From assembly GCA_020428795.1 (NCBI GenBank), contig JAGQME010000002.1:3374-67373 (forward strand): 64,000 nucleotides of DNA. The letters run 5' to 3'. Shown here piece by piece: positions 1-59,478 of the stretch (position 1 is its first letter; the number at the start of each line of letters is the position of its first letter). Below the pieces are notes generated by a model, which saw nothing but the letters and a program-made list of their open reading frames with translations, searched no databases and had not been told where the DNA came from. Source of the DNA: Candidatus Kaiserbacteria bacterium. GTDB lineage: Bacteria; Patescibacteriota; Minisyncoccia; Phycocordibacterales; UBA918. Made by a program: the position numbers and the translations under genes.

Positions 1-2486
1 TCGCTGGTCACTTCGCTACTATTGTCTATATTTAGTTTCACCACTACATCGATGTCTTCATCTATAGTGGTTAGAGATGTAGCATCAACCCCAAAGACAG
101 CGCTTCTGGCAATCTGTGAAATTGTTAAAGCATTTAGACCAAAAGCAGCGGCCTTGTCACGGTCAAGTTCTAAGACATATTCAGTATTGTTATTGTTAGT
201 GCTGGTTTCAACATTGGTGACATGGGGCACAGACTTAAATATTTCAGCCGATTGATTACCAAGCTCAGTTAGCTCGGTCAAATCATCACCTAAGAATTTA
301 ACAATAATAGCAGCTCCGGTTGGTGGACCATCACTAAGTTGATTTATAGAAACCTTAACATCACGAATATCGGCAGTTTTGCTACGCAATCTCTCGACAA
401 TTTCCGTGCTGGTCTCTTTTCTGTCGTCAGATAGAGTAATGAAGATGTTAGCTAATTTTTCACCAGTCCCACCACCGCCATACTGGTTGCCACTACCAAC
501 AGTGACCACGTAAGACTCTATATCGTTTTCAGTATAGAGAACCTCTTCGACTCGTCTCACCGCAATATCGGTCACTTCTTTTGTGGTTCCTTCTGAGTTT
601 TCTATTTCAACAATTACATATTCGATGTCACCAGTTTCGAAAAATACCACTTTTACTAAATTGAAAGAAGGTAATACTGTGAAGGCTAAAACACCAGCCA
701 CTCCTACACTAAGAGCTGTAGTGATAAGCCAAAGGAATACATTTTTAAATAAACCGGAATTATGAGTGTCCAGATACTTATATCGCCATAAATAAGTCAC
801 GTATATCAATACTCCAGCCACAATACCAGCCAATGCATTAATAGTGGTGAATATCGCAACAAATAAACCAGCGTTTAGCAGAGCGATAAACTGCCACTGT
901 TTTTCTTTGCTGTAGATATAGGGAGTTAGCTTAGCCTTATACCATGTCTCAAGCCGGTGAGCATACTCTACTTGCATCTTTTCCATCTTGGTCTGACTCC
1001 GTCTTTTTAGAAAATTAGAAGCCAATAGCGGAATTATCGCTAAGGACACAAACATGGAAGCAAAGAGTAGGAAGATCAGAGTGAATGGAATACTAGCAAT
1101 AAATTGACCAATAACACCTGAAACAATGAACAGGCCAGCAAACATGGCTACTGTTGTTAAAGTACCTGATATCAATGGGGCGCTAAACTCCTTGATGGTT
1201 TCAATTGAAGCTTGTTTCTTGTCGATGGTTGGATAATCTTTCATTTTTCGATTGATTCCTTCAACCATAACAATGGCTGAGTCAACCAAAATACCAATTC
1301 CTAATATTAACGAGAAAAGGCTTAGGAAGTTGATGGTGTTGCCAGAAAAATACAGACCGATAAAACCAAACAAAAATGACAGAGGAATGGCGGTACCAGC
1401 CAATAATCCTTCTCGCCAACCAATCGCAATCACCAAAAGCAAGACAACTAATACGACGGTTTGAATACCCGAGGTTGATAGTCTGATTAGATCTGATTCG
1501 ATATCAGCTCCAGCATCAAGAATAGTTTTGCTTTTTACGTTATCCAAAATACCACCTGGTTCTTTCATTTCTTCAATCCTTGTATTAACCAGCTTGGCAA
1601 TAGTGGTTATGTCACCGCCAGTTTGCTTATAGACATCGAGTGATATGGAGTGACCAGATGGCTGTCCATCTAGACTCAAACGGGAAATAGATTTAGCCGG
1701 AGCTAATCCGTCAACCACTGTTGCCACGTCTCTTATGTAAACAGGCTGGCCACCCCTGGTTACGATGCCGATGTTAGCAATTTGCGAGGTGTCAGTGATA
1801 TCACCTTCAAAAGCCACGTTGTAGGAAACACCATCGTTAACAATCTGACCAATTGGGAAAGCAATATTAGCGTTTCTAATAGCCGAAGTTACCTCGGAAA
1901 TTGATAATTGGTAACGAAGTAAAGACGTTTGATCGATTATAATCGTAACTTCTCTGTCACGGACACCGCTGGTCACTACTCTAGATACACCAGAAAGTTC
2001 CTCCAGTTCACGTTCGACGTTTTTAGCCAAAGCGGTGAAGGCAAAGTCACTTATGTCAGCCGAAAGGGCAATCGTCATAATCGGCTGGTCAACAAAGTTA
2101 ACCTCACCTACAAACGGATCTTCAGCCTCGCTAGGTAAATCCTGCTTTATTTTATCGACTTGATCCTTCAAGTCCTGTATGGATGAGTCAATATCTGCGC
2201 TGGCTTCAAATTCAACTGTGATAGCTGACACCCCCTCGCTAGAATTAGAAGTTATCTTCTTTACATTCTCTAATGAAGTTAGACCTCTTTCTATTTCGTT
2301 AGTTATTAGAGACTCCACGTCGGCAGCTGGAGCACCAGGCAAAACGGTGGTAACAATTCCGACCGGTATTATCACTTCCGGAGCTGATTCTTTTGGTATT
2401 ATCAATACTGAATAAGTACCAAGTGAAATTAAAGCCGCTAAGAACAAGTATGAAAACTTGTTATTTTTAATAAAAAATTCCCACAT
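1..2486 (-). CDS. RND efflux transporter permease (AcrB/AcrD/AcrF family), C-terminal part truncated by the window edge
   Basis: The reverse complement from an ATG at 2486 reads MWEFFIKNNKFSYLFLAALISLGTYSVL..., an open frame down to position 1 with no stop. It is absent from the ORF track because it is incomplete in this window. TM-rich segments alternate with large periplasmic loops typical of HAE1 RND pumps. It sits 1 nt downstream of the HlyD-type adaptor on the same strand. Confidence 0.8.
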   Translation of the reverse strand, partial: MWEFFIKNNKFSYLFLAALISLGTYSVLIIPKESAPEVIIPVGIVTTVLPGAPAADVESLITNEIERGLTSLENVKKITSNSSEGVSAITVEFEASADIDSSIQDLKDQVDKIKQDLPSEAEDPFVGEVNFVDQPIMTIALSADISDFAFTALAKNVERELEELSGVSRVVTSGVRDREVTIIIDQTSLLRYQLSISEVTSAIRNANIAFPIGQIVNDGVSYNVAFEGDITDTSQIANIGIVTRGGQPVYIRDVATVVDGLAPAKSISRLSLDGQPSGHSISLDVYKQTGGDITTIAKLVNTRIEEMKEPGGILDNVKSKTILDAGADIESDLIRLSTSGIQTVVLVVLLLVIAIGWREGLLAGTAIPLSFLFGFIGLYFSGNTINFLSLFSLILGIGILVDSAIVMVEGINRKMKDYPTIDKKQASIETIKEFSAPLISGTLTTVAMFAGLFIVSGVIGQFIASIPFTLIFLLFASMFVSLAIIPLLASNFLKRRSQTKMEKMQVEYAHRLETWYKAKLTPYIYSKEKQWQFIALLNAGLFVAIFTTINALAGIVAGVLIYVTYLWRYKYLDTHNSGLFKNVFLWLITTALSVGVAGVLAFTVLPSFNLVKVVFFETGDIEYVIVEIENSEGTTKEVTDIAVRRVEEVLYTENDIESYVVTVGSGNQYGGGGTGEKLANIFITLSDDRKETSTEIVERLRSKTADIRDVKVSINQLSDGPPTGAAIIVKFLGDDLTELTELGNQSAEIFKSVPHVTNVETSTNNNNTEYVLELDRDKAAAFGLNALTISQIARSAVFGVDATSLTTIDEDIDVVVKLNIDNSSEVTS

Positions 2487-2487
2487 A

Positions 2488-4032
2488 CTAGTTGTTGTTA
2501 ATAGCTTCTACCTTTTGGCCGGCGACCAAACCTCTAGCATCAACGACGATTACATCCTCCTTGTTGACACCGCTGGTTATGGTCACATTTCCACCCACTA
2601 TCGGACCAACCTGGACTGATCTCGATACCAAGACACCTTCTTCAGATATGGTAAAGATGGAACCATCAGTGGCTGAAAACTTAACCGCAGTAATCGGTAT
2701 CAAAATTGGTGATTCCGGCTTTTCTAACAAGACCTCTTTGTTTAGTGAAACACTAGCGGTGTTACCGGTGGTTAGATCAGATGATTCAGTGGCTATTTTG
2801 ACCTCTGATTTAAGAGTGATCGGGTCAACGGCTGGAGCCACATTTGTAACTATTCCTTTTTGGGTCTCATTTATAACAACTTCATCACCAATGGCTATCG
2901 ACATCAAATCTTGCTCTCCGACAAAAATAGATATTTCTTGGGCATTATTATTAGCTACCTCGGCCACTGGGGCTGACTGGGAAATGTAGTCACCAGCTTT
3001 CACCTGAAGGGAATTGATAGTCCCAGCAATTGGTGTTCTGATGATAGTTTTGTTCAGCTGTGCCTCCGCCGCCCTTAAGGTACCAAGCGCCTGTTTAACC
3101 TGAGCTGATGACACTGAAATCGTACCATTAGTAGCCGCTATATTGGCACGAACCAGAGCTTCTTCAGCGTTACTAAGGTTAGACTTGGCGGTTCTGACGC
3201 TTTGAATCAATGAGTTTAAAGTAGACCGATCCGCAATAAGTGAAGTGGTATAACTAGCCACACTGACTCCTTCCAATACAGAAGTATCCTCGTTTGAGGT
3301 AATCTCAATAAAAACATCCAACATAGCCTGTTGTCTTAATAGCAAGGTTTCGGCTTCTGAAAGAAGACCAGGCAGGTCACTTTCTGTATTAGACATATCT
3401 AACTTTTTCTTAAACTCCGGCAATAGAGACTGAAAAGCAATTCTTTCGTTTCTAAGATGTGCAGTGTTACCTTTTCCGCTAATTCTCAGACCTGGCAGAC
3501 TAGTTTCTGGACCAGAGAAAAATTGATCAATTTGGGTAAGTAAAATATTGTTTAAAGTAGCATAAGCATTATTAGCCATGGCTAATGAAGCATTCTGAGC
3601 TTCCAATAAAGCGATTTCACTACTTCTAACACCACTACTATTTTGTTCAGAGTTGGCCAGAGCCGCTTCGTAAGCTCCTTCGGCCTGCAACACACTGGCT
3701 CTTTGAGCCGCATTTTCAAGCTGGGCAATTATAGTTCCAGCCGGCACATTTTGGCCAATAGACACCGGTACCGAAACCACTCGTCCGCTAGCTTCAGCCT
3801 CCAAGCTGGCCTGAGTAATGGCTTCAACGGTACCAATAAAATTCAAAGAAGAACCACTACTTAATGATGACACCGTAGACACCTTTACTTGCTTAATGTC
3901 AGTCTGAACTTCTTCGATTGAATTTGATTCACGAAAAAAACTAAATACCGCTACAATGGCCAATATAAATATCGTAAAGGCCACTAATCTGACATTTCTT
4001 TTTCCGTACCAACTGTATAATTTTTGTATCAT
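2488..4032 (-). CDS. HlyD-family periplasmic adaptor (membrane fusion) subunit for the RND pump
   Basis: 514 aa with an N-terminal TM anchor (VAFTIFILAIVAVFSFF), long coiled-coil/alanine-rich segments and a C-terminal beta-barrel-like region. It is in an operon with the RND permease. Confidence 0.75.
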   Translation of the reverse strand: MIQKLYSWYGKRNVRLVAFTIFILAIVAVFSFFRESNSIEEVQTDIKQVKVSTVSSLSSGSSLNFIGTVEAITQASLEAEASGRVVSVPVSIGQNVPAGTIIAQLENAAQRASVLQAEGAYEAALANSEQNSSGVRSSEIALLEAQNASLAMANNAYATLNNILLTQIDQFFSGPETSLPGLRISGKGNTAHLRNERIAFQSLLPEFKKKLDMSNTESDLPGLLSEAETLLLRQQAMLDVFIEITSNEDTSVLEGVSVASYTTSLIADRSTLNSLIQSVRTAKSNLSNAEEALVRANIAATNGTISVSSAQVKQALGTLRAAEAQLNKTIIRTPIAGTINSLQVKAGDYISQSAPVAEVANNNAQEISIFVGEQDLMSIAIGDEVVINETQKGIVTNVAPAVDPITLKSEVKIATESSDLTTGNTASVSLNKEVLLEKPESPILIPITAVKFSATDGSIFTISEEGVLVSRSVQVGPIVGGNVTITSGVNKEDVIVVDARGLVAGQKVEAINNN

Positions 4033-4166
4033 ATGAATCTATTTATTAAAGCGTTAAAATATCACAAAATATTTGTTCTGTCAACTAAAATCAGCTTATT
4101 CTTAGCCAATCCAGGTTCTACCTTAATGGTTTTTGCTTCTGATAAAAGATGCTACAATAGCCCTCT

Positions 4167-4478
4167 ATGTTTGGAAAAATCAAAAATTATGCGATGAAAA
4201 AGTTGTTGGATAAACAGCTAAAAAATGTACCAGCTGATCAAAGAGAGATGATCATGACCATGGTGGAAAAAGACCCAGCCTTATTTGAAAAAATTGCCAA
4301 AGAATTACAGGAAGAAACTAAGAAAGGTGGTAATCAAATGAACGCTGCTATGAAAGTGTTGCCTAAATACCAGAAAGAGATTATGGCCATCATGAGTCCC
4401 GAAATGAAGGAAAAACTAATGAAGCAACAGATGGGTACCCAAGGGCAATTTAATCCCAACGGCAGTATTAAAAGATAG
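4167..4478 (+). CDS. hypothetical small Lys/Met-rich protein
   Basis: 103-aa ORF downstream of a TACAAT -10-like element. There is no recognisable domain. Confidence 0.4.
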   Translation: MFGKIKNYAMKKLLDKQLKNVPADQREMIMTMVEKDPALFEKIAKELQEETKKGGNQMNAAMKVLPKYQKEIMAIMSPEMKEKLMKQQMGTQGQFNPNGSIKR

Positions 4479-4515
4479 TTAACCACATACAAAATCGAGT
4501 GGCTTTGATAATGAC

Positions 4516-5112
4516 ATGTATAATAACTTATACATGCAGAAAAAAATTTTAATTATTCTTGGTCACACTGATAAAGAAACTTACAGTGGAGCCATGGCTG
4601 ACCATTACCAAGCCGGAGCGGAAGAAGCTGGTCATGAGGTAGTGAGGGTAAACATCGGTGACTTAGAATTTGATCCCATTCTCCATAAGGGTTACAAAGA
4701 AATTCAACAGCTCGAACCCGATCTAATCAAACTACAAGAGACTTTTACTTGGGCTGACCATGTAGTAATAGTTTACCCAAACTGGTGGTGCACTATGCCA
4801 GCTATATTGAAAGGTCTATTTGATAGAATCTGGATACCAGGTTTTGCTTTTAATTTTGATAAAAAAACGAAGAAAGTCATCCAGCGACTTAAGGGTAAGA
4901 CAGCCAGAGTCATTATTGTGGCCGGTTCTCACAGCCCGTTTAAGACTTGGTGGATGTTTGGTGATTATACTAACGAAATTCAACACGGAGTTCTAGGTTT
5001 TGCCGGTCTTGAAACCGCTGTTTCTGCCTTTGGACCGTGTGAAAGAGTGACTGATGAGACTAGGTCTAAATGGCTAAAAAAGATAGAGTTATTAGGACGA
5101 ACCGGCGTTTAG
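4516..5112 (+). CDS. flavodoxin-like fold NAD(P)H dehydrogenase (quinone) family protein
   Basis: The KKILIILGH..ETYSGAMADHY N-terminus and VVIVYPNWWCTMPAILKGLFDRI match Flavodoxin_2/MdaB/YrkL-type signatures. The start may be the internal Met at 4534. Confidence 0.6.
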   Translation: MYNNLYMQKKILIILGHTDKETYSGAMADHYQAGAEEAGHEVVRVNIGDLEFDPILHKGYKEIQQLEPDLIKLQETFTWADHVVIVYPNWWCTMPAILKGLFDRIWIPGFAFNFDKKTKKVIQRLKGKTARVIIVAGSHSPFKTWWMFGDYTNEIQHGVLGFAGLETAVSAFGPCERVTDETRSKWLKKIELLGRTGV

Positions 5113-5248
5113 GCAGTTTTTAGGATACCAATTTAGTAACACCAACAAGAGATAGCCTGATTATTTAGGTGTTTATCTGTAATTTTGATATTTTACGCAT
5201 TGTAAATGATGATATAATTTTAGATATTAATTCAGGACCCATTTAGTT

Positions 5249-5926
5249 ATGAACAAGCAAATATATATAGGAGTAGGTGTAGTAGTAGTTTTGGCGGTGG
5301 CTGGTTTTATTTTCATCAATCAGTCTAATAAAGATGGTGCCCAAGCACTTTCCCAGACAACCAATGAAAATTCTGAGCAAAATTCGGCTGAAGATCAGAT
5401 GGAAAATAAAGAGACTGGTCTAAGCAATTTCAGAGCCTTAATGACAGCCGGCGGTAGTCAGCGTTGTGAGTTTAGCACCGATGCCCTAGATAGTGAACAC
5501 AAATCAAACGGTGTAGCCTATATCTCAAGCGACAAAATAAGAGTCGAGAGTCAGGTGATGTACGATGAGGCGGAGTATGAATCATCATTTCTTGATAACG
5601 GAGAGGAAATTTACGCTTGGGGTCAAACTCCCGACGGTGAGTTTGCTATAAAAATGTCCAAATCTGATATAGATGATTATTCAGAATATTATCCAACCGA
5701 TAATGGTTTTGATTATGATGAAGATGTTGAGTACGAATGTGTAAGTTGGACTGAAGTAGGATCCTTGTTTACTCCACCAAACAATGTTGAGTTTATGGAT
5801 ACCGCCAAAATGTTTGAAGACATTGGCGCCATGCAAAGCAGTATGGGTGTTGATGGTTATGACGGTCAAAACGCCGACATCGAAGCCTTACTACAGTACG
5901 ACAGTGTTGATCCAGTGGCTGAATAG
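5249..5926 (+). CDS. hypothetical membrane-anchored acidic protein
   Basis: N-terminal TM helix (IYIGVGVVVVLAVAGFIFI) followed by a strongly acidic D/E-rich soluble region. Confidence 0.5.
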   Translation: MNKQIYIGVGVVVVLAVAGFIFINQSNKDGAQALSQTTNENSEQNSAEDQMENKETGLSNFRALMTAGGSQRCEFSTDALDSEHKSNGVAYISSDKIRVESQVMYDEAEYESSFLDNGEEIYAWGQTPDGEFAIKMSKSDIDDYSEYYPTDNGFDYDEDVEYECVSWTEVGSLFTPPNNVEFMDTAKMFEDIGAMQSSMGVDGYDGQNADIEALLQYDSVDPVAE

Positions 5927-6051
5927 CAGGGTTACTCATTCAGAATTTAGAATTGTCCATAGCTTATAAAATAAGCCTAAACCGTTTAGGTCTAGAGTAA
6001 CATAGTAAAACCCTTTATTTAAGGTAATATTTTTGTTAATCTTCTACACAT

Positions 6052-7152
6052 ATGTCACTATCAGTCGGAATCGTAGGCTTGCCAAACGTTGGTAAATCAA
6101 CCCTATTTAATGCGCTTACCAAAAAATCAGTAGCGATGGAGAATTATCCATTTTGTACAATCGATCCTTCGGTAGGGGTAGTAGCCGTCCCCGATGGCAG
6201 ATTGCAGACCTTAGCAAGCATCTCTGGTTCTGAGCAAATATTACCAGCGGCGGTTGAGTTTGTAGATATTGCTGGTTTGGTTAAGGGTGCCTCAGCCGGT
6301 GAGGGATTAGGAAATAAATTTTTGGCCAACATTCGGGAAACAGATATGATAGTCGAAGTGGTTCGTATTTTTGAGGACGATGATGTACACCATGTCTCTG
6401 GCCTAGTAGATCCACTGGCCGACATTGAGATAATAAATCTAGAATTAATATTTGCTGACCTTGAAACTGTAAAGAAAAGACTAAATGGTCTGGAAAAAGA
6501 TGTGAAGCGAGGTGATAAATCAGCCATTAGTGAGAAGTTATGTTTAGAGAAAATACTGGTGGTTTTGGAAGTCGGAAAATTAGCTAATACAGTTGACCTT
6601 AATGCTGAGGAAAAAAAGATAGTTTCCGGTTTACATCTTTTGACCATGAAACCATTTTTGTATGTTTGTAACAAAAAAGCCGGCGCTAGAAACCTAGACG
6701 AAACAGACGACGATCGCTGGCGAGACTTAACTCAATACTTCGAGGATACGAACATGGATTACATCGTCCTAGACGCTGGTGTTGAACACGAACTGAAAGA
6801 TCTAGATGGCGATGAAAAAAATGAATTCAGAAGAGAGTACGGATCACAAGACGCTGGTGTAGACTCATTAATAAGAGCTTGTTACACCAGACTAGGTCTA
6901 ATGTCATATTTTACCACCGGTGAAAAAGAAACCCGAGCTTGGACAGTGCCAATTGGCAGCACCGGTCCGGAGGCCGGTGGTGCAATCCATACTGACTTTG
7001 TAAAAAAATACATTCGAGCTCAAGTTGTCACTTTTGATGACTTGGTTGAATGTGGCTCAATTAAGCAGGCTAGGGAAGAGGGGAAGCTTAGGTTTGAAGG
7101 TAAAGAATATATAGTTAAAGACGGTGACGTAATTGAGTTTATGCACTCATAG
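6052..7152 (+). CDS. ychF: ribosome-binding ATPase YchF
   Basis: GIVGLPNVGKSTLFNALT P-loop, NYPFCTIDP, and a C-terminal TGS domain. Confidence 0.9.
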   Translation: MSLSVGIVGLPNVGKSTLFNALTKKSVAMENYPFCTIDPSVGVVAVPDGRLQTLASISGSEQILPAAVEFVDIAGLVKGASAGEGLGNKFLANIRETDMIVEVVRIFEDDDVHHVSGLVDPLADIEIINLELIFADLETVKKRLNGLEKDVKRGDKSAISEKLCLEKILVVLEVGKLANTVDLNAEEKKIVSGLHLLTMKPFLYVCNKKAGARNLDETDDDRWRDLTQYFEDTNMDYIVLDAGVEHELKDLDGDEKNEFRREYGSQDAGVDSLIRACYTRLGLMSYFTTGEKETRAWTVPIGSTGPEAGGAIHTDFVKKYIRAQVVTFDDLVECGSIKQAREEGKLRFEGKEYIVKDGDVIEFMHS

Positions 7153-7167
7153 ATAAATCAGTCAGTT

Positions 7168-7530
7168 ATGAGCAAGCCACATTTTCGCAAAAAAGAAACT
7201 CATGAAAAATACCAAAATCTTATTAAAAATGGCTATATCAATGACGGATGTCGCTTATGCAAAATGGATGGTTTGACTTCATTTAAATATTGGAATATTA
7301 CCGAGAACGACTTTCCCTATGATGCTATTGCTAAAACACACCACATGTTGTGCATTAAGCGACATGTAGACGAAAATCAGATCACAAATGAAGAATGGCG
7401 AGAATTGAAAACCATTAAAAATAGCAAAGACTTAGAGCGGTATACTTTTATTTTTGAGACCCTGCCCCATCGAAAAAGTATTCCAAATCACTTTCATCTA
7501 CATCTAATTGAAGCTCTTGATGTAATCTAA
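7168..7530 (+). CDS. HIT-family (histidine triad) protein
   Basis: C-terminal HFHLHLIE matches the HxHxHxx triad. There is an N-terminal CxxC. Confidence 0.5.
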   Translation: MSKPHFRKKETHEKYQNLIKNGYINDGCRLCKMDGLTSFKYWNITENDFPYDAIAKTHHMLCIKRHVDENQITNEEWRELKTIKNSKDLERYTFIFETLPHRKSIPNHFHLHLIEALDVI

Positions 7531-7832
7531 CTACCTTCACTTGGTGGATTGGCTCTTTGTACTGGACTAAGGACATTGGGGTCCCATTTAGCTTCTATTT
7601 TGTGGTGTTTTTCCTCAAAATTCTTTATTTCATGTTCCAGATACTCATGTAGTCGTTTGGCGTGCTCGGGTGTTAAGGCGTAAATATTTGACTGCGAGCC
7701 TGAGCTTAGTCCAACCACGAAATATTCAGGCGAAAAACCAACTCTAATATTTTCACAAAATAATTTCGGCGCATTTTTTAAATCTTCTTGTTTCATATTT
7801 ATATGGTACATTGTATTTAATGAAAAATCCAA
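7527..7832 (-). CDS. hypothetical protein
   Basis: 101-aa ORF divergent from the HD-domain gene. No confident domain is seen, though it weakly resembles DUF3467. Confidence 0.4.
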   Translation of the reverse strand: MDFSLNTMYHINMKQEDLKNAPKLFCENIRVGFSPEYFVVGLSSGSQSNIYALTPEHAKRLHEYLEHEIKNFEEKHHKIEAKWDPNVLSPVQRANPPSEGS

Positions 7833-14106: not shown

Positions 14107-14124
14107 TGAAACACTAGTTATCCA

Positions 14125-14159
14125 AGCAGCCCTCATTTTTAAAGAAAATGAGGGCTGCT
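14125..14159 (+). terminator. 14-bp perfect stem-loop (gcagccctcatttt-taaag-aaaatgagggctgc)
   Basis: Inverted repeat read directly, immediately after the stop of the 13081 gene. It overlaps the first ATG of the downstream ORF. Confidence 0.5.
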
Positions 14160-14162
14160 TTG

Positions 14163-15539
14163 ATGTACAATATACTGAATAGTATGGAAAAAATTCCGAT
14201 CATCGGTCCAATTTATAGTTTTTTTGGCGGGGAAGATATAGACATCGGTGTCTTCATTGCAATATTTGGTGTAATCCTGATCATCTACGGTCTTAGCTAC
14301 TTTGGGGTTGGTGAATCAAAAGTTGTCACCATTATGTTTGCTCTTAGTCCAATCTGGCTCCCAATAATGGCTTTTAATGTATTTTTTAGCAAATGGATGG
14401 ACACGGTTGGTCTATCATTTTATGTTTACAACGGTCGCACCACTCTTGAAATAAAATTGCCACCTGAAGTTTTTAAGTCTCCAGAAGCCATGGAGACAGT
14501 GATTGCTCAAATACACAACGTAGCTACTCCTGACAACTTAATGCAAACCTATATTGATGGTAAAAGGCCACTACCATATTCTCTGGAATTAGTCTCAACC
14601 GAAGGAGAGGTTAAGTTTTATGTAAACCTACCAACCAAAAAGACAACCGAGGCTTTTAAGGTTAGTCTTTACAGTCAGTACCCTGGAGTCGAGATTCATG
14701 AGGTAGCGCTAGATTACACTGCTCAAATTCCTAGTGATTTGAAGGGCTATAATTTGATGGGTTTTCATATGGGTAAGAAAAAGGATTCAGCCTATCCGAT
14801 AAAAAGCTACTATGAGTTTGGTCTAGATAAACTACCTAAGGAGGAGGAGAAACTCGATCCAATGACTCCGATGCTAGAAGCGCTTGGTTCTTTTAAAAAG
14901 AATGAGCATCTTTGGATTCAAATTTTGATCACCCCCCATCGTGAGAAAAGTTTTAAATTCGGGCAACTAAGAAGCGGTCCTAATTGGGAGCCAGCAGCTA
15001 GAGCTCAGATTGACAAAATAATGAACCGAGACCCAGCAACCAAACGGGCCGCTGGTATGGACGATCAGGAGTTTGGTATGACCTTACTCTCACCGGGTGA
15101 GCGGAGTACCTTAGAAGCTATGGAATTAAATCTCGAAAAGTACCCTTACGAAACTGGTATCAGATGGGTTTATATCGCACCGGAAGACAAATACCGATTC
15201 GACGCTATTTCAATGATGATCAGAACTTTCAGTCAGTGGGATGTATTAGGTCGAAACGCCATTGGAGTGAGGTGGCGAACCGACTTTAACTACAAGGCCT
15301 TATCAGACCCACTTGGTAGCCGACTTAAGGTCTGGAAAAAGGAAGAATTACAAAGATATAAGCTAAGAAAATACCTACCTCGCTCTGGAGCAGACCAAGA
15401 GAAAATATTTACTTCACTCGAATTAGCTACCATGTATCACTTACCAGGTAAGGTGGCTATCACCCCAGGCATAGACAGAATCACCTCAACCAGAAGCGAG
15501 GCGCCAAGCAATCTGCCGATTGGAAATTACGAACAATAA
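14163..15539 (+). CDS. hypothetical membrane protein
   Basis: Two N-terminal TM helices followed by a ~380-aa soluble domain. The start is taken as the ATG at 14163 because the ORF-track start at 14148 lies inside the hairpin. Confidence 0.5.
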   Translation: MYNILNSMEKIPIIGPIYSFFGGEDIDIGVFIAIFGVILIIYGLSYFGVGESKVVTIMFALSPIWLPIMAFNVFFSKWMDTVGLSFYVYNGRTTLEIKLPPEVFKSPEAMETVIAQIHNVATPDNLMQTYIDGKRPLPYSLELVSTEGEVKFYVNLPTKKTTEAFKVSLYSQYPGVEIHEVALDYTAQIPSDLKGYNLMGFHMGKKKDSAYPIKSYYEFGLDKLPKEEEKLDPMTPMLEALGSFKKNEHLWIQILITPHREKSFKFGQLRSGPNWEPAARAQIDKIMNRDPATKRAAGMDDQEFGMTLLSPGERSTLEAMELNLEKYPYETGIRWVYIAPEDKYRFDAISMMIRTFSQWDVLGRNAIGVRWRTDFNYKALSDPLGSRLKVWKKEELQRYKLRKYLPRSGADQEKIFTSLELATMYHLPGKVAITPGIDRITSTRSEAPSNLPIGNYEQ

Positions 15540-29511: not shown

Positions 29512-29533
29512 GGGATAAATCAAGTGTTTAGTA

Positions 29534-29562
29534 TTGACCTTTTGCTAGACTTTTGCTAAACT
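29534..29562 (+). promoter_or_regulatory. promoter TTGACC-N17-TAAACT upstream of infA
   Basis: Hexamers and 17-nt spacer read directly, 14 nt before the infA ATG. Confidence 0.45.
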
Positions 29563-29575
29563 CACACACGTTTAA

Positions 29576-29797
29576 ATGGATCAAGAAAAAGATAACGAAG
29601 AACTCGTCTACGCCACAGTAGAGGAAGCGCTACCAAATGCGCTTTTTCGCGTAATAGTAGACGGCGAAGATGAAACACAAATTGCCTATTTAGCAGGTAA
29701 GATGCGGAAGTTTCGTATCAGAGTGTTAGTCGGAGACAAGGTTGCTATTGTTCCTGACCCATACGGAGGTAAAGGTAGAATAACAAAAAGACTATAA
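29576..29797 (+). CDS. infA: translation initiation factor IF-1
   Basis: LPNALFRV...[16 protein letters not shown] is the S1-like IF-1 signature. Confidence 0.9.
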
Positions 29798-29804
29798 ATT
29801 TAAT

Positions 29805-29921
29805 ATGAAAGTAAGATCATCAGTTAAAAAAATGAGTCCTGACGACAAAATCGTCAAGCGTAGAGGTAAGGTCTTTGTTATCAACAAGCTAAAACCTCGC
29901 CACAAACAAAGACAGGGTTAA
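29805..29921 (+). CDS. rpmJ: 50S ribosomal protein L36 (Cys-less, non-zinc form)
   Basis: Manual translation gives [38 protein letters not shown]. It matches the L36 consensus, but the three Zn-ligand Cys are replaced by S/D/N. It is below the ORF-track length cut-off. Confidence 0.8.
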
Positions 29922-29933
29922 TTATTTCAAAAT

Positions 29934-47670: not shown

Positions 47671-48059
47671 GAAAGGGCTAGAGGGAATTGTTGTTTTCAA
47701 TTACAAAACAGACTGTTACTAAACAACAACTCTGCTTGAAAAATAGTATACCTATTTTCTTCTTTACCAAGCAAAGAATCAAATACAGTAATAGTTTGAT
47801 CCTCTTTCGAACTAGTTATTAACTGGGTAAATTGTTTAGAAAGTTTGTTTAGTTGAGTGATAGAAAGTTTGCTTTTATTTAGTCTTACCATATAAAGATA
47901 CTAGCAAACCTTTCAATCGATTGAAAGGTTTGGGGCGTAGGTATTTTTAGTATCTGATGCCTCTTATGCTGGAGTTTTGTGCTGGAGTCTTGGAATCTAA
48001 GGTATCAGGCACAAAAAAACCGCATACATTTTGGTTTAATCTAAACAAAATCATTCATT

Positions 48060-48475
48060 GATTAGTCAAACCGCAGTTGCGGCCGTGGTGCGGACGGAGC
48101 TCACGCCCCGTCCGCCCGATTGGGGGGGGATTTTGGGGACTTTACTTTACCCCGGACTCTTGCCGTTGGCAAGAAATGCCATGGGTTCCTCCCTTGTTAG
48201 TGGTTTCATTGTCCGACCCCGACCCCTGACGACAGGGGTCGGGATGGTCGGCGTCGGCCGGTGAGGCTAGGCCAGCGCCGCCCGCCGCCGGCTCGACCGA
48301 TCGCGCGAGGGATCGCTCGCCCACGGCGGGCGGGCCTTGGCGTCGGACGGCGAAGAGCACATGTAGGCGCCGAAAATCAGTGCGGAAGTGGGGGGTGCGT
48401 GTTCCATCATCGTGGTCTCCTTGTTTAGTCGCCCTCAGCCCTTTACCTTCGGTAAAAGGTGGGCGACCTCAATAT
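48060..48475. other. GC-rich island of unknown identity (~415 bp, roughly 70% GC) inside the scpA-scpB spacer
   Basis: Abrupt composition shift read directly. Several stable hairpins are present: gaccccgacccctg-acga-caggggtcggg, gcggacgg...ccgtccgc, and gtcgccc...gggcgac. A minus-strand 47-codon ORF (48267..48410) has an AAGGAGA SD five nt from its ATG. Confidence 0.4.
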
Positions 48476-48598
48476 ACTAACACAATAAAAATAACTGTCA
48501 AGCAGTTTTCAACAGCCTAACTTTAGAGCAAATTAGACTAATTTCGATATACCCAGAAAATGATTAAAAGGCCTTATTTTATGGTATTATTCTGCTAT

Positions 48599-54982: not shown

Positions 54983-56281
54983 ATGTACAGTAGAGCATAC
55001 GTGGCCTTTATAGTTGGCCTTATGATTTTTCCGGTGATGTATTTCGGAGTTAATTCGGTATTTGCACAATCAGAATTGGAAAAACTACAAGACCAAATCT
55101 CTGATCGTACCAATCGTCTTGATGAAATCCAGAAGGAAATTGCTAAGTATGAAAGCGCCTTAAAAGAAGTGGGGGCTGAAAAAAACACCTTACAATCAGC
55201 TATCAACAAACTGGAACTCGAACGCAAAAAAATCCAAGCTGATATTAAATTCACTGAAAACAAAATTGAATCCACCGACCTGACCATCGACAAAATCTCA
55301 TACGAGATTAAAGAGACTGAAAAATCAATTGATACCAACGAAGACACCATTAAGCACGTCTTAAGGCAGATGAATATCTCTAACAACGAGTCTCTGATAG
55401 AGATATTATTACAGCATGACAACATCGCTGAGTTCTGGGACGAATTTGAAGCCCTTGAAACGGTTAGAGTCAGTATTGGTGAAAAGATAAATGAACTGTC
55501 GGACCTAAAAACGGCTTTAGAAAACAACCGTTCCTTAAACACCAGACAGAAAGAGCAATTGTTAAATCTTAAAAGTCAGTACGACGATCAGCAGACCATT
55601 TTATCTAATAACAAAGCCGAGAAAGCAGAGCTCTTATCGGCTACCAAAAACGAAGAGGCTAACTACCAACAATTACTAAAAGACAAACAAGCGGCCCGTG
55701 ATCGATTGATGGCGGAGGTAAGAGACATCGAATCTCAGATCAAGTTTATCCTAGATCCAAATACCATTCCAGCCAAAGGTACCGCTGTCTTTATTTGGCC
55801 ACTCGACAATCCAATTATTACACAGCGATTTGGCTACACTCAGTTTGCACTATCTGGTGCCTACAATGGCAGTCAGCACAATGGTATGGACCTAGGAGCC
55901 CCAATTGGAACTAAGATTTATGCTCCTTTGACCGGTACGGTTCGTATGACCGGTAACACCGATAGCGTACCGGGTTGTTACTCATGGGGTAAATGGGTTT
56001 TGATAGATCATCCTAATGGACTATCTAGCATGTTTGCACACTTGAGCCAGATCGCCGTCTCAGCTGGTCAAAAAGTTTCAACCGGGGACGTGGTGGGTTA
56101 CGTCGGTAACACTGGTTATTCAACCGGGCCACACCTACACTACACCTTATACGTAACTAAGGGAGTTCAAGTTATGCAGTTCAATCAATTTAAATCTGTG
56201 ACCGGCTGTGGGGCGGCTCTGTCACCATTTGCCGGTATCGATGCCTACCTTGATCCACTGGATTACTTACCTAAAATTTAA
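54983..56281 (+). CDS. M23-family peptidoglycan metalloendopeptidase with N-terminal coiled-coil (EnvC-like)
   Basis: Signal/TM N-terminus, ~250 aa of coiled coil, then HNGMDLGAPIGT (HxxxD) and GPHLHY (HxH). Confidence 0.8.
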   Translation: MYSRAYVAFIVGLMIFPVMYFGVNSVFAQSELEKLQDQISDRTNRLDEIQKEIAKYESALKEVGAEKNTLQSAINKLELERKKIQADIKFTENKIESTDLTIDKISYEIKETEKSIDTNEDTIKHVLRQMNISNNESLIEILLQHDNIAEFWDEFEALETVRVSIGEKINELSDLKTALENNRSLNTRQKEQLLNLKSQYDDQQTILSNNKAEKAELLSATKNEEANYQQLLKDKQAARDRLMAEVRDIESQIKFILDPNTIPAKGTAVFIWPLDNPIITQRFGYTQFALSGAYNGSQHNGMDLGAPIGTKIYAPLTGTVRMTGNTDSVPGCYSWGKWVLIDHPNGLSSMFAHLSQIAVSAGQKVSTGDVVGYVGNTGYSTGPHLHYTLYVTKGVQVMQFNQFKSVTGCGAALSPFAGIDAYLDPLDYLPKI

Positions 56282-56333
56282 TCAACCCAAAACTTACTGT
56301 GGGTACAAACAGAAAGTAACAGTAAGGTACGAC

Positions 56334-56389
56334 AAAAGCAATAAGCCGAGTCCTTATATTTAAATATAAGGACTCGGCTTATTGCTTTT
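56334..56389. terminator. 56-nt perfect palindrome (28-bp arms), probable bidirectional terminator
   Basis: aaaagcaataagccgagtccttatattt | aaatataaggactcggcttattgctttt, read directly, 50 nt after the M23 peptidase stop. Confidence 0.6.
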
Positions 56390-56443
56390 AATTTCATAGC
56401 TTAAAAGACTTAACAAAAATGAATCCAAAAATTCATTTCATCA

Positions 56444-56499
56444 CACCTCATCTATATATCATCATCTATATATCATTAATGATATATAGATGAGGTGTA
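56444..56499. repeat. inverted repeat with an internal tandem copy of catctatatatcat (alternative hairpin registers)
   Basis: acacctcatctatatatca ... tgatatatagatgaggtgt arms, with a second direct copy of the left arm core. Confidence 0.5.
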
Positions 56500-56650
56500 T
56501 AAAAGGTGGTCTAAAGGGTGAGGGTTAGTGACAGTTGGTACAACATAATCTAATAGCACCTACATATATCATATTCATTAGGCACTAAAATCTTTTAGAC
56601 TATCTTTACACCATCCCTAATTCTGATTTATAGAATAGAATTGATTAAAA

Positions 56651-56692
56651 AGCCAACTGAAACTTACAGCTAGCTGTAAGTTTCAGTTGGCT
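56651..56692. repeat. 42-nt perfect, loop-less palindrome (agccaactgaaacttacagct|agctgtaagtttcagttggct)
   Basis: Read directly. Confidence 0.55.
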
Positions 56693-56849
56693 TAGTTTGT
56701 AAACATGCGAATTTAAAGTTACGACCATACCATCACAAACATGACCAAAAGCAGAGTCACTCGCTTTTTAATCTGATTAACTAATTCAATTAACGTAGAC
56801 TATCTAACCTTATCTACTACCAAAAGACCCAGTAAGGGAAGTGGGCTAG

Positions 56850-56896
56850 AACAACAAACCCATTTTGCAAATCATTTGCAAAATGGGTTTGTTGTT
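56850..56896. repeat. 47-nt palindrome with 23-bp arms (aacaacaaacccattttgcaaat c atttgcaaaatgggtttgttgtt)
   Basis: Read directly. Confidence 0.55.
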
Positions 56897-57383
56897 GAGA
56901 TAGGTAATCTAGGTGGTCCAGATAGACAAAATAGAGTTAGTTAGAGTTAGCTATATAAAAAATAAAACTTAAAAAGCGCAAAGACTGAGCGCAATCTAGA
57001 GATTGTTAGAAATGACTCTAAACTAAACCACAAGTATTTAAACGCCTTAGAAGCCAATTTTAAGCCTCATAACTAAGAGCCTGAATTCATAATAATAACA
57101 AAAGCTAGTATAATATTATCCGTCGTAAAAGATATATTGTGCGACATTAAGGAATATAAATGTTATTTAAGCTAGCCATACTTCTCTACCGATTCTCCAT
57201 CAGAAATGTGTGATCGGATTATTTAATCAACTACCAGACAATTACCTCACTCGACTACGTACATCATTCATCTATAGTCACCAATCTTTATCTGGTCAGT
57301 TGTCGTTTATATAAACCTGTAGGGTTTTAGCTCTTAGGTAACAAAGAGGTCATCACTCTCTCCCCCGCTTTTTTCTTATGGTA

Positions 57384-58169
57384 TTAGTCGGCTAGTAATT
57401 TACCTCCCAACAAAGTTTCAATTACCGAATCATAGGCCGGCTGGTGTTTGGTCAATTTAATATTCCGAGTCCCATTAGTAGTCAGTTTGCTTCGATGCTC
57501 AGGGTGATTGGTTAAATAGTCAGCCAGTTTGGCTGGCACTATTTCATCTTGCGAGAAGACTTTTATTTTTTCTTGGTAGCGATTCTTGATTCCCTCCTTC
57601 AAAACTGTGTAATGGGTACAGCCCAAAATAATGGAGTCGATACTATTTACAAGAGCTTCATCTACACTGGCAAACACCGCTGTCAAAGCCAGCTCCAGTT
57701 GACCATCTTCAATCAATGGCACCAGAAGTGGTGTCGCCTCTTTATACAGGATTGGTTTACGAGAAAACTTATCCAGTTCTTTTTGGTACTTACCAGAACT
57801 AACGGTCCTTTCGGTACCAATCAAAAATGTTTTAGCGACCCTAGCTTCAATCAATGATTCTATAGTCGGAATAATTACTCCTAAAATTCGGCGGTCCGGA
57901 TAATTTTCGACTAAGTAGGTATCTTGCAGACGACGCAAAGTCTCAGCTGAAGCCGTATTACAGGCAATAATAATAATTTGACAATCCTTCTCAAATAGAG
58001 ACTCCACTCCTATCTTGGTCAGATTGTAGATTTGCTCTTCGGTCTTATCACCATAGGGCAAATTAGCGGTATCACCATAAAATTCATAATCGTACTGAGG
58101 CAACAGCTCTACAATTGCTTTCAATATAGTTAACCCACCAAGACCAGAATCAAACACACCGATTTTCAT
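57384..58169 (-). CDS. murI: glutamate racemase
   Basis: KIGVFDSGLGGLTIL, IIIACNTASA and LGCTHY motifs. Confidence 0.9.
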   Translation of the reverse strand: MKIGVFDSGLGGLTILKAIVELLPQYDYEFYGDTANLPYGDKTEEQIYNLTKIGVESLFEKDCQIIIIACNTASAETLRRLQDTYLVENYPDRRILGVIIPTIESLIEARVAKTFLIGTERTVSSGKYQKELDKFSRKPILYKEATPLLVPLIEDGQLELALTAVFASVDEALVNSIDSIILGCTHYTVLKEGIKNRYQEKIKVFSQDEIVPAKLADYLTNHPEHRSKLTTNGTRNIKLTKHQPAYDSVIETLLGGKLLAD

Positions 58170-58191: not shown

Positions 58192-58677
58192 TTAACCAAC
58201 TTCAGCCAATGCTTTTACAGCTTCATATTGCTCCTTACTTATTTCAAAAACTGACAGTCTGTTTCCTCTACTAACCAGCCTACTATCCTTCATTACTGGC
58301 AAAGACTTTATATCTTTAAGTAAAATTATCTGGTTGTACTTTTCTATGAATTTAACATCAAGACAAAGCCAAGTCGGATCATCCTTACTTGATTTGGGAT
58401 CGAAGTGACTGTCTTTTTTATTGAACTGAGTCAGATCGGCGTAAGCCTGACTAATCACCTCCATCTCCCCTGCTACCCCAATCGAATCTGAACTAGAATG
58501 ATAAAACAAAGCAATATCGCCAACTGAAATTTCATCTCTGATTAAATTCCGAACCTGATAATTACGTATACCGTCCCAACTCGTTTTTCTCTGTTTTTTT
58601 AAGTCATCAATGGAGAAAGCACTGGGTTCACTTTTCATTACCCAATAACGTCTGACCTGTTTATTAGTAGCAGTCAT
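58192..58677 (-). CDS. EVE-domain (PUA-like) protein
   Basis: RRYWVMKSEPSAFSIDDL...WDGIRNYQVRNLIRDEISVGDIALFYHS is the canonical EVE N-terminus. The start is taken at MTATNKQ, 40 codons inside the ORF-track ORF. Confidence 0.6.
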   Translation of the reverse strand: MTATNKQVRRYWVMKSEPSAFSIDDLKKQRKTSWDGIRNYQVRNLIRDEISVGDIALFYHSSSDSIGVAGEMEVISQAYADLTQFNKKDSHFDPKSSKDDPTWLCLDVKFIEKYNQIILLKDIKSLPVMKDSRLVSRGNRLSVFEISKEQYEAVKALAEVG

Positions 58678-58707
58678 TCGATAAGTATACAAGAAATATC
58701 TCAGATA

Positions 58708-58737
58708 GAAAAAACTCCCCTTTAGGGGAGTTTTTTC
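58708..58737. terminator. bidirectional terminator (gaaaaaactcccc-ttta-ggggagtttttt)
   Basis: 12-bp stem flanked by A- and T-runs, lying between the lytic-transglycosylase-like gene and the EVE gene. Confidence 0.65.
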
Positions 58738-58748
58738 TATGGAGAATT

Positions 58749-59075
58749 TTAAAGAGAAGCTAGTTCTCGACTCCAACATGGAGCTGACGCATTCCAAGGT
58801 TTGGTACCTTGTTGCTCATAGAGCATTCTGGCGTACTCCATATTGTCGTAAATATTTTCAAGATTGAGTCCCAGTTCTTTAGCTTTCGCACCGTGGTAGT
58901 AAGAGTTAATTTGCATTACTCCCGTGTCTCGACTATCAACCTTTCCGCGTAGGACTGAACCGTCAGCTAAGGTATGTCTGAACATTGACTCACATTTTGC
59001 TACTTGCACCATTACTGGTATGTCACTAAAGTAATCTCTTACAATTCCTTCAGTGTCAGCCGTTGTCACATTCAC
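58749..59075 (-). CDS. lytic-transglycosylase-like (SLT-type) small protein; 5' end uncertain
   Basis: CESMFRH...DTGVMQIN follows the E-S...G-x-MQ pattern of SLT catalytic domains. The annotated start is GTG. A signal-peptide-like in-frame upstream extension has no canonical start codon. Confidence 0.45.
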   Translation of the reverse strand: MNVTTADTEGIVRDYFSDIPVMVQVAKCESMFRHTLADGSVLRGKVDSRDTGVMQINSYYHGAKAKELGLNLENIYDNMEYARMLYEQQGTKPWNASAPCWSRELASL

Positions 59076-59478
59076 TTCTACTACCTTATTCGAATCAATA
59101 GTAACTTGACCATAAGCGGTCTCCCCTTGAACGAACGATCCGGTAGCAGTTACAGCAATAATTGCTGAAATGACAGTGGATATAATAAGCCGTTTGTCTT
59201 ATCTAACAAATAAGCGAGCGAAGTTGTAGCCACCCTACCCTGTCTAGGATATTTAAATAGCTATAACAAAACGAGCGCCATATGTATAACCTATTACAGC
59301 CATACAAATGCCAGCTTTCGCTGACAACCGCACAATACTATCACAAATTGCGGATTTTTATTATTATAGCATAATTTACTATTTATGTCAATATAAGCTA
59401 GCTAAATGTGTCTGGTTTTACATGAGCCGATTTGCGTATAAATAAACTATAATACGCCTATTAATTAGATTTATGTAA

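Follow-up and report, generated by a model that had tools for sequence, protein, structure and literature searches.

The M23 peptidase gene and murI are adjacent, convergent genes in the 64-kb stretch of the Candidatus Kaiserbacteria contig JAGQME010000002.1 that was analyzed here (the window; positions are counted from its first base). The spacer between them (1102 bp, 56282-57383) contains the two subjects of this report, a 28-bp dif-like site that is conserved in related Patescibacteria and four long perfect palindromes, designated P1 to P4. The M23 gene (54983-56281, plus strand; Pfam Peptidase_M23, E = 2e-28) closes a plus-strand block covering 4167-56281, and murI, the gene for glutamate racemase (57384-58169, minus strand; Pfam Asp_Glu_race), opens a minus-strand block. 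A first-pass annotation of the window had described the spacer as free of open reading frames (ORFs) of 60 aa or more and far longer than the typical spacers (20-130 bp) elsewhere. The ORF listing confirmed the first point: no ORF of at least 60 aa lies within 56282-57383, the longest internal ones are of 39, 36 and 34 aa, and a 51-aa ORF (56208-56363) that starts within the M23 gene protrudes 82 nt into the spacer. As to its length, the spacer is indeed far above the median of the window (41 bp), although three other spacers also exceed 400 bp (422, 889 and 403 bp).

A search with the M23 protein found about 80 species-level genomes labeled as Paceibacteria, Kaiserbacteria, Nomurabacteria, Parcubacteria or Patescibacteria. 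The identity to the M23 protein of the window was from 51 to 78%, and since the best match reached only 78%, the species of the window is absent from the reference genomes. In nearly all of these species, the genes for MurG, GltX and M23 face those for MurI, EVE, ROK and LOG on the opposite strand, and M23 and MurI are 0.2 to 8.5 kb apart. In blastn comparisons of the spacer with the related loci, window positions 57122-57147 (at times slightly more) matched about 60 loci, always in the gap and in the same orientation, and nothing else in the spacer could be aligned to the relatives.

The conserved site lies at 57120-57147 on the plus strand and reads CCGTCGTAAAA GATATA TTGTGCGACAT, that is, with a layout of 11-6-11. 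The clade consensus is ATGTCGCAAAA GATATA TTGTGCGACAT, the arms of which are imperfect inverted repeats, complementary at 10 of 11 positions; the only asymmetry (A9/G20) never varies and confers a polarity on the site. Among the 59 loci with the same variant as the window (variant 1), positions 3-26 hardly vary, in contrast to positions 1-2 and 27-28, and the flanks are unalignable. The 28-mer is single-copy in the window with up to 3 mismatches allowed. When all of the site variants described below are counted, each of 89 loci (up to 21 kb) has one site and none has two. In these 89 loci, 97.7% of the long-ORF bases upstream of the site are on the plus strand, and 85% of those downstream are on the minus strand. 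Covariation of the hairpin type at the outer positions was not significant, and the 28-mer has no significant fold of its own (z = -1.3); in this it behaves like a binding site for a protein rather than a hairpin.

A sigma-70-like promoter match (57086-57114, plus strand; TTCATA, 17 nt, TATAAT), which is a consensus match only, at 10 of 12 positions, stops 6 nt short of the dif-like site; in many relatives, a TATA-rich stretch immediately precedes the site. On the other side, GAATAT just after the site (57148-57160) recurs in a subset of the relatives and overlaps the start of ggaatataaatgttatttaag. The latter motif (57151-57171) had been noticed in the first-pass annotation as dif-like, without conviction. 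This motif is distinct from the site; the conserved 28-mer terminates 3 nt upstream of it, and only the first few bases of the motif overlap the GAATAT flank that is partly conserved in some relatives.

Published dif sites have two 11-bp arms around a 6-bp centre and a low G+C content (PMC2958812), and their inner positions are conserved, whereas the outer ends vary and the flanks show no conservation (PMC2731167). Both the architecture and the conservation pattern of the 28-mer match these descriptions, which supports its identification as dif. As in the XerCD/dif systems of Escherichia coli and Bacillus subtilis and in the proteobacterial consensus, the site is of 28 bp and low in G+C, with 11-bp imperfect inverted arms, an AT-rich 6-bp centre, the strongest conservation at the inner arm positions and variable outer ends, and it occurs once per locus, at what is taken to be the convergence of the replichores. 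However, the inner arm bases here are AAAA/TTGT instead of ATAA/TTAT, and no XerC/XerD pair was seen; the near-symmetric arms suggest a single recombinase.

Several results weigh against the identification or limit it. The 28-mer is identical to 13 published dif sites at 14 to 20 of 28 positions, in register with the best of them (Francisella, 20; Geobacter, 19), but in an AT-rich window such similarity is not distinctive: two to three other 28-mers score as high (20/28), and the conserved site is only third by mean identity. Similarity to canonical dif was accordingly discarded as a detector, because other 28-mers of the window match equally well. Furthermore, the 64 kb of the window contain no Xer gene, and none occurs less than 10 kb from a variant-1 site. 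The GC skew, proposed earlier as a check for the terminus and calculated here for the window, does change from positive to negative at the M23/murI junction, yet it follows the gene strand and is no independent marker of the terminus. As for the other strand switch, at about 4.1 kb, the possibility of a replication origin was rejected, since the switch is made by a minus-strand AcrB/HlyD efflux operon and has no dnaA.

Related loci provide the link to recombinases. A second variant of the site, TTCGTTTTACATATATTGTGCGAA, is always located upstream of an Xer-like gene, at a distance of 14-310 nt (14-76 nt in 10 of 11 loci). The linked gene encodes a protein of about 320 aa with Phage_integrase and SAM-like domains, for which the best family matches are XerC/XerD, below their cut-offs. 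Most of the loci with neither variant 1 nor variant 2 contain a second Xer type, which shares approximately 32% identity with the first. Of 19 loci checked, 18 have a third 28-mer, ACTGAGTATTA GAGWTA TTATACTCAGT (11-6-11), about 25-190 nt upstream of the matched part of this second Xer type, again at the M23/MurI junction (L020:9924-9951 and 17 other loci, L006, L009, L019, L024 and L026 among them). One locus, L041, carries both Xer types. The same junction thus hosts three versions of a recombinase site, and variants 2 and 3 each stand beside a recombinase gene of their own.

The review literature (PMC5357621) regards linkage of the site and the gene as possibly characteristic of systems with a single recombinase, namely XerS/difSL and XerH/difH. 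The two variants found directly upstream of one Xer-like gene in the relatives resemble these modules, known from streptococci and lactococci (XerS/difSL) and from Helicobacter and Campylobacter (XerH/difH). However, the centre is 6 bp here and 11 bp in difSL, the recombinases of about 320 aa score best against XerC/XerD and not XerS, and the variant of the window is itself not linked to a recombinase gene, unlike in the XerS and XerH modules.

Further evidence comes from a viral catalogue, in which the 19-nt core of variant 1 was found in 26 contigs. Six of the 26 (L122, L124, L128, L130, L131 and L132) have a full site and, 5.1-5.9 kb apart and in direct orientation, a hybrid site, in which only the right arm TTGTGCGAC and the last four bases of the centre (TATA, on its 3' side) are retained; the element in L124 spans 2200-7632. 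In L124, the one of the six that was annotated, genes for a Zot-like ATPase, a G2P-type rolling-circle replication protein and a DUF2726 protein lie between the sites, and a tblastn search with an Xer query gave no match in any of the six contigs. A filamentous prophage without an integrase, inserted between dif and a hybrid site, is the mark of elements that exploit the host Xer. Recombination thus seems to take place at this site in other Patescibacteria, as judged from the arrangement of these contigs. The MurG encoded next to the site in the viral-catalogue contigs is only about 32% identical to that of the window, so the 28-bp site appears to be shared well beyond the family to which the window belongs. 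These filamentous-phage-like elements, lacking an integrase match and lying between full dif and hybrid, are similar to the integrative mobile elements exploiting Xer (IMEX) of Vibrio, such as CTX-phi, VGJ-phi and TLC-phi. The window differs in that it contains no such element, hybrid site or phage genes; neither the 28-mer nor its right arm has a second or hybrid match in it. The comparison therefore backs the identity of the site and not that of the palindromes.

An alternative possibility is that the conserved 28-mer is not dif but serves a dimeric regulator as its operator, or is used for attachment by mobile elements only. Its palindromic form, the -10 box of the promoter-like match just upstream, the lack of an Xer gene in this genome fragment and the indistinct similarity to canonical dif could all be understood in this way. 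However, variant-1 sites are in a convergent gap, with no downstream gene to regulate; the site is found once per locus, where gene orientation converges, in 89 loci; two sister variants are each beside their own Xer type; and the integrase-less prophages leave a hybrid of part of the centre and one arm, as Xer exchange at dif produces. We consider an operator or a mere attachment site very unlikely.

We conclude that the 28-bp site at 57120-57147 is, with high probability, the dif site of this Patescibacteria lineage and that the spacer is its dif/terminus locus. The spacer would be the chromosome-dimer-resolution locus of a Paceibacteria-type genome, at the convergence of the plus and minus gene blocks, which is taken as the meeting point of the replichores. 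By analogy with the known systems, a tyrosine recombinase of the Xer family would bind both 11-bp arms and exchange strands across GATATA, and this exchange would resolve chromosome dimers at cell division. The DNA beside the site in this lineage is free of genes and holds only four strong hairpins of the gene-end-terminator type. Features of a replication terminus had been among the first suggestions for this convergent junction, and the suggestion is supported by the conservation of the junction in some 80 species and by the dif-type site within it; the palindromes are not the evidence for it. In a literature library that is incomplete, we found no paper on dif in Patescibacteria, on linked Xer modules or on such prophages. 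Three dif variants are distinguished here, two of them next to Xer genes and one exploited by inovirus-like IMEXs; this family may be the first account of how Patescibacteria resolve chromosome dimers.

In contrast to the site, the DNA between M23 and the site varies widely in the relatives. It may contain zwf-gnd-pgl genes, decaying pgl pseudogenes, unrelated ORFs, an RNA-like element or almost nothing, and the junction may also hold Xer genes or Xer-dependent prophages. Even the two closest relatives differ in their gap content (unrelated ORFs). Such comparisons indicate that the DNA around the dif-like site is a zone of fast turnover. Some relatives (for example, L060 and L063) likewise have a gap of 0.8-0.9 kb that is poor in genes and in which no ORF exceeds about 70 aa; hence a long spacer nearly free of ORFs is not special to the window, but the cluster of palindromes is. 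A tblastn search of the spacer for coding remnants, using 699 ORFs from the gaps of relatives and pgl proteins, gave only spurious translations of the dif-like site.

Two other elements were observed in the gaps of the relatives. In 23-25 of them, a conserved element of about 75 nt is located 70-130 nt downstream of the M23 stop codon (L038:11363-11456; alignment A1). It combines a TATTAT -10-like box with two hairpins, a 5' one (GCGATGCA...TGCATCG) and a long 3' one, and with the sequence GTAGGAACTTACC, which is single-stranded and invariant. With compensatory changes in 9 of 20 predicted pairs and no match to an Rfam family, it is a candidate for a new small RNA, encoded next to the dif locus in Paceibacteria. 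The element is missing from the window. Its covariance model was tried on the window and detected generic terminator hairpins only; the best score (25.4 bits, 14108-14200, minus strand) is at a gene-end palindrome (14124-14160) and probably reflects a generic hairpin match. The other element is a 14-nt inverted copy of the right arm of dif (ATGTCGCACAATAT), present in 33 loci about 550-680 bp upstream of the dif-like site (for example, L038:11741-11754). The copy sits in the pgl coding sequence (motif ECRTIF), and it is kept in decayed pgl pseudogenes, including at synonymous positions, at a near-constant distance from dif. As it is part of the pgl coding sequence or pseudogenes and is absent from the window, it was rejected as a second half-site.

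The four palindromes of the spacer are all present within one base of the positions given earlier, and the arms of each are 100% complementary; only the length of P3 had to be corrected, from 42 to 44 nt. P1 (56334-56389) starts 52 nt past the M23 stop codon and has 28-nt arms with no loop; A4 precedes it and T4 follows it. Its RNA fold is of -40.8 kcal/mol (z = -11.2), and the terminator scan was positive on both strands. P2 (56443-56498) is AT-rich with 20-nt arms and has no U-tract, and its RNA fold is the weakest (-28.3 kcal/mol). Its left arm contains a 14-nt tandem duplication, TCATCTATATATCA twice (56448-56475), confirming the duplication seen before, and an alternative, loop-less palindrome with 16-nt arms is present at 56462-56493. 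P3 (56650-56693, minus strand) is loop-less with 22-nt arms and is followed by UUUUU on the minus strand, where it folds at -31.7 kcal/mol and passes the terminator scan. P4 (56850-56896) has 23-nt arms, a 1-nt spacer and an RNA fold of -31.2 kcal/mol; its outer arm segments are A-/U-rich (AACAACAAA and TTTGTTGTT), like the gene-end hairpins of the same genome, and the U-rich stretch sits within the stem. Together, the palindromes as RNA range from -28 to -41 kcal/mol, with z from -6.8 to -11.2 against shuffled sequences, and palindromes of this length cannot arise by chance. They share no sequence among themselves. The sequence gagttagttagagttag occurs within the spacer at about 56934-56950.

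Perfect palindromes of such length had been thought unusual for terminators. In the rest of the window, however, there are seven further perfect palindromes with arms of 14-21 nt, all of which are non-coding by the gene calls used; one of them (58705-58740) counts as non-coding only if the shorter gene call of the same-species contig L104 is adopted, as it lies in the TTG-start ORF in its extended form (58192-58797). Six directly follow genes in short spacers, and one is in the 889-bp spacer. In several, the GC-containing stem is flanked by A-rich sequence on the 5' side and by U-rich sequence on the 3' side, the latter lengthening the paired region. Two of the seven were folded, and their energies (-31.6 and -36.8 kcal/mol) fall within the range of P1-P4. 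From these gene-end palindromes and their matching energies, long perfect palindromes appear to be the normal gene-end hairpins of this organism, and the earlier view does not stand for this genome. Non-coding DNA contains 3.6 palindromes per kb in the spacer versus 1.7 elsewhere in the window, an excess that is not significant. The palindromes of the spacer are distinctive in the length of their arms (22-28 nt in P1, P3 and P4) and in that P2 to P4 trail no gene.

None of the approximately 80 related species has P1-P4 at the equivalent locus. The comparison of synteny thus bears out the junction and, within it, the 28-bp site as the one conserved part, but not the palindromes; as these are conserved in no relative, the suggestion that they are binding sites for dimeric proteins is also disfavored. 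Many relatives have a different hairpin after M23, at the place equivalent to P1. Clustering of palindromes as a general property of the locus was rejected, since perfect palindromes in the relatives are about as frequent in the M23-MurI gap (0.13/kb) as outside (0.10/kb). No further copies of the four palindromes were found in the window, in 105 related loci or in phage or plasmid collections. Viral contigs were scanned four times, once per palindrome, and the lone result was a stretch of 20 nt within a phage ORF that matched one of the P3 arms, a hit that we judged to be due to chance (rough expectation, a few tenths of a hit). A miniature inverted-repeat transposable element (MITE) or other many-copy repeat, as had been proposed, or a family like the repetitive extragenic palindromic (REP) elements was therefore rejected: there are no extra copies in the collections searched, viral contigs included, and the four palindromes are unrelated to one another. 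Similarly, the suggested search of Rfam (release 15) gave no match at the gathering score in the whole window; a known RNA family in the spacer was dismissed, since its sub-threshold matches, from a scan of the spacer with an E-value cut-off, are generic hairpins (microRNA and plastid 3'UTR models).

From their form and position, the palindromes may be terminator-type hairpins in fast-evolving DNA beside dif, an interpretation to which we give about an even chance. On the same grounds, P1 most likely serves the M23 gene as an intrinsic terminator that acts in both directions, and P3 is most likely a canonical minus-strand terminator for transcripts from the murI/dif side. There is no strong hairpin between murI and the dif-like site; hence, minus-strand transcripts leaving murI would cross dif and stop at P4 or P3, and P4 probably halts such transcripts. 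P2 looks like a young AT-rich hairpin that followed replication slippage and has no evident role. In support, the seven other palindromes of the window are non-coding, P1 and P3 pass the terminator scan, and a hairpin after M23 is present in many relatives. P1, read on either strand, and P3, read on the minus strand, share with bidirectional intrinsic (Rho-independent) terminators the A-tract, the GC-containing stem and the U-tract, with energies that match the gene-end palindromes of the same genome. However, the arms in the spacer are of 22-28 nt, compared with 14-21 nt at gene ends.

Other observations do not fit terminators well. P2 to P4 trail no gene or ORF, a clean U-tract is missing from P2 and P4, and the relatives do without such a cluster. 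In addition, a promoter scan found no promoter-like site between the palindromes. Finally, three independent short-read assemblies of the same species break here, which could reflect heterogeneity of the population and not a fixed structure. Taking the identification of dif and the terminator interpretation of the palindromes in combination, we regard the whole as fairly probable.

The assemblies concerned are among four short contigs of the same species, obtained by exact-protein look-ups, none of which spans 56368-56754; a scan of metagenomes with MurI gave nothing closer than 60% identity. The contig ends are at 56353 (L002), 56368 (L001) and 56754 (L104), with 99.8-100% identity to the window. 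Two of the contigs, L001 and L002, end inside P1 and confirm its first 35 nt, L001 passing its centre by 7 nt. On the other side, L104 is identical over 56754-57383, including P4 and the dif-like site; the strain is 99.8-99.9% identical overall. Given where the contigs stop, P2 and P3 are read from the window sequence alone. The breaks may be due to loss of read coverage at hairpins or to population heterogeneity.

One possible explanation other than termination is that template switching or snap-back synthesis during replication or repair created the palindromes as neutral side products in the unconstrained DNA of the terminus; they would then be young and functionless and persist because a small genome such as this does not remove them. 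They are perfect, nearly loop-less and found in no relative, P2 carries a fresh 14-nt slippage duplication, and the spacer has no coding remnants and is otherwise unalignable, all of which would be expected. However, P1 and P3 show the layout of A-tract, stem and U-tract of working terminators, and the palindromes share the form of the gene-end hairpins of the genome. P4 and the rest of 56754-57383 are also identical in a second sample, although this is a weak argument in a strain that is so nearly identical overall. We think a neutral origin unlikely.

Mobile DNA beside dif could also have left the palindromes behind, either as the hairpin-rich intergenic region of an Xer-dependent filamentous prophage or as a non-autonomous, hairpin-ended element of the IS200/IS605 type. 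Intergenic regions of filamentous phages contain several large hairpins. The locus is the insertion site of integrase-less inovirus-like elements in other Patescibacteria, gap content differs among the closest relatives, and the same-species assemblies break here. Against this, the window has no second or hybrid dif, and when the spacer was compared with the prophage-bearing contigs at the DNA and translated levels, no similarity was detected except at the dif site. Long perfect palindromes are lacking in those prophages, none of the four has another copy in the window, in relatives or among the phages, plasmids and viral contigs searched, and the four palindromes have no sequence in common. 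Leftovers of mobile DNA are thus improbable in our estimation.

The cluster might instead be a functional or mechanistic companion of dif, with cruciforms or hairpins that pause converging forks or shield dif from transcription, or the scar of a hairpin-based mobile element that targets the neighborhood of dif. We hold either to be doubtful. If one of them is true, the three assembly breaks would represent a real rearrangement within 56368-56754 at the level of the population.

A small RNA, or several, encoded in the spacer, with the palindromes as terminators or structural cores, is a weaker candidate. The RNA-like element after M23 in 23-25 relatives, with its -10-like box and compensatory changes, indicates that small transcription units do occur at this locus, and P1 and P3 are terminator-like. 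However, that element is missing from the window, Rfam gives generic hairpins only, no promoter-like site lies between the palindromes, and nothing outside dif is conserved; small RNAs in this spacer are therefore quite unlikely. That the cluster is an artefact of assembly, made of fold-back chimeras at contig ends, is hardly credible: three assemblies do stop at 56353, 56368 and 56754, and P2 and P3 were seen in the window only, but L001 reads 7 nt beyond the centre of P1, L104 reproduces 56754-57383 including P4, and equally perfect palindromes occur in normal gene spacers throughout the window.

Among the other long spacers of the window, that of 889 bp (47671-48559) is ORF-free with a G+C content of 0.47, compared with roughly 0.40 window-wide. 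It contains a palindrome with 14-nt arms (47905-47932) and a GC-rich imperfect inverted repeat (48278-48333), and it has no Rfam match at E <= 0.01. The spacers at 29512-29933 and 59076-59478, each longer than 400 bp, have no ORF of at least 80 aa. ARAGORN detected no tRNA or tmRNA in the window.

The palindromes are probably of little consequence, being lineage-specific and similar to the ordinary terminators of the genome. The site itself would provide a sequence marker of the terminus and dif across a large clade of uncultured Patescibacteria, the genomes of which are almost all metagenome bins. Such a marker could be used to orient and check assemblies, to place the terminus for estimates of replication rate and to flag the hypervariable zone beside it. 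The result as such would not surprise a specialist; its use lies in the terminus marker and in the evidence of phages that exploit Xer. In some lineages, the Xer system appears to be a linked module of site and gene, like XerS and XerH. Furthermore, the integrase-less, filamentous-phage-like elements at the site would extend the Xer-exploiting lifestyle to Patescibacteria.

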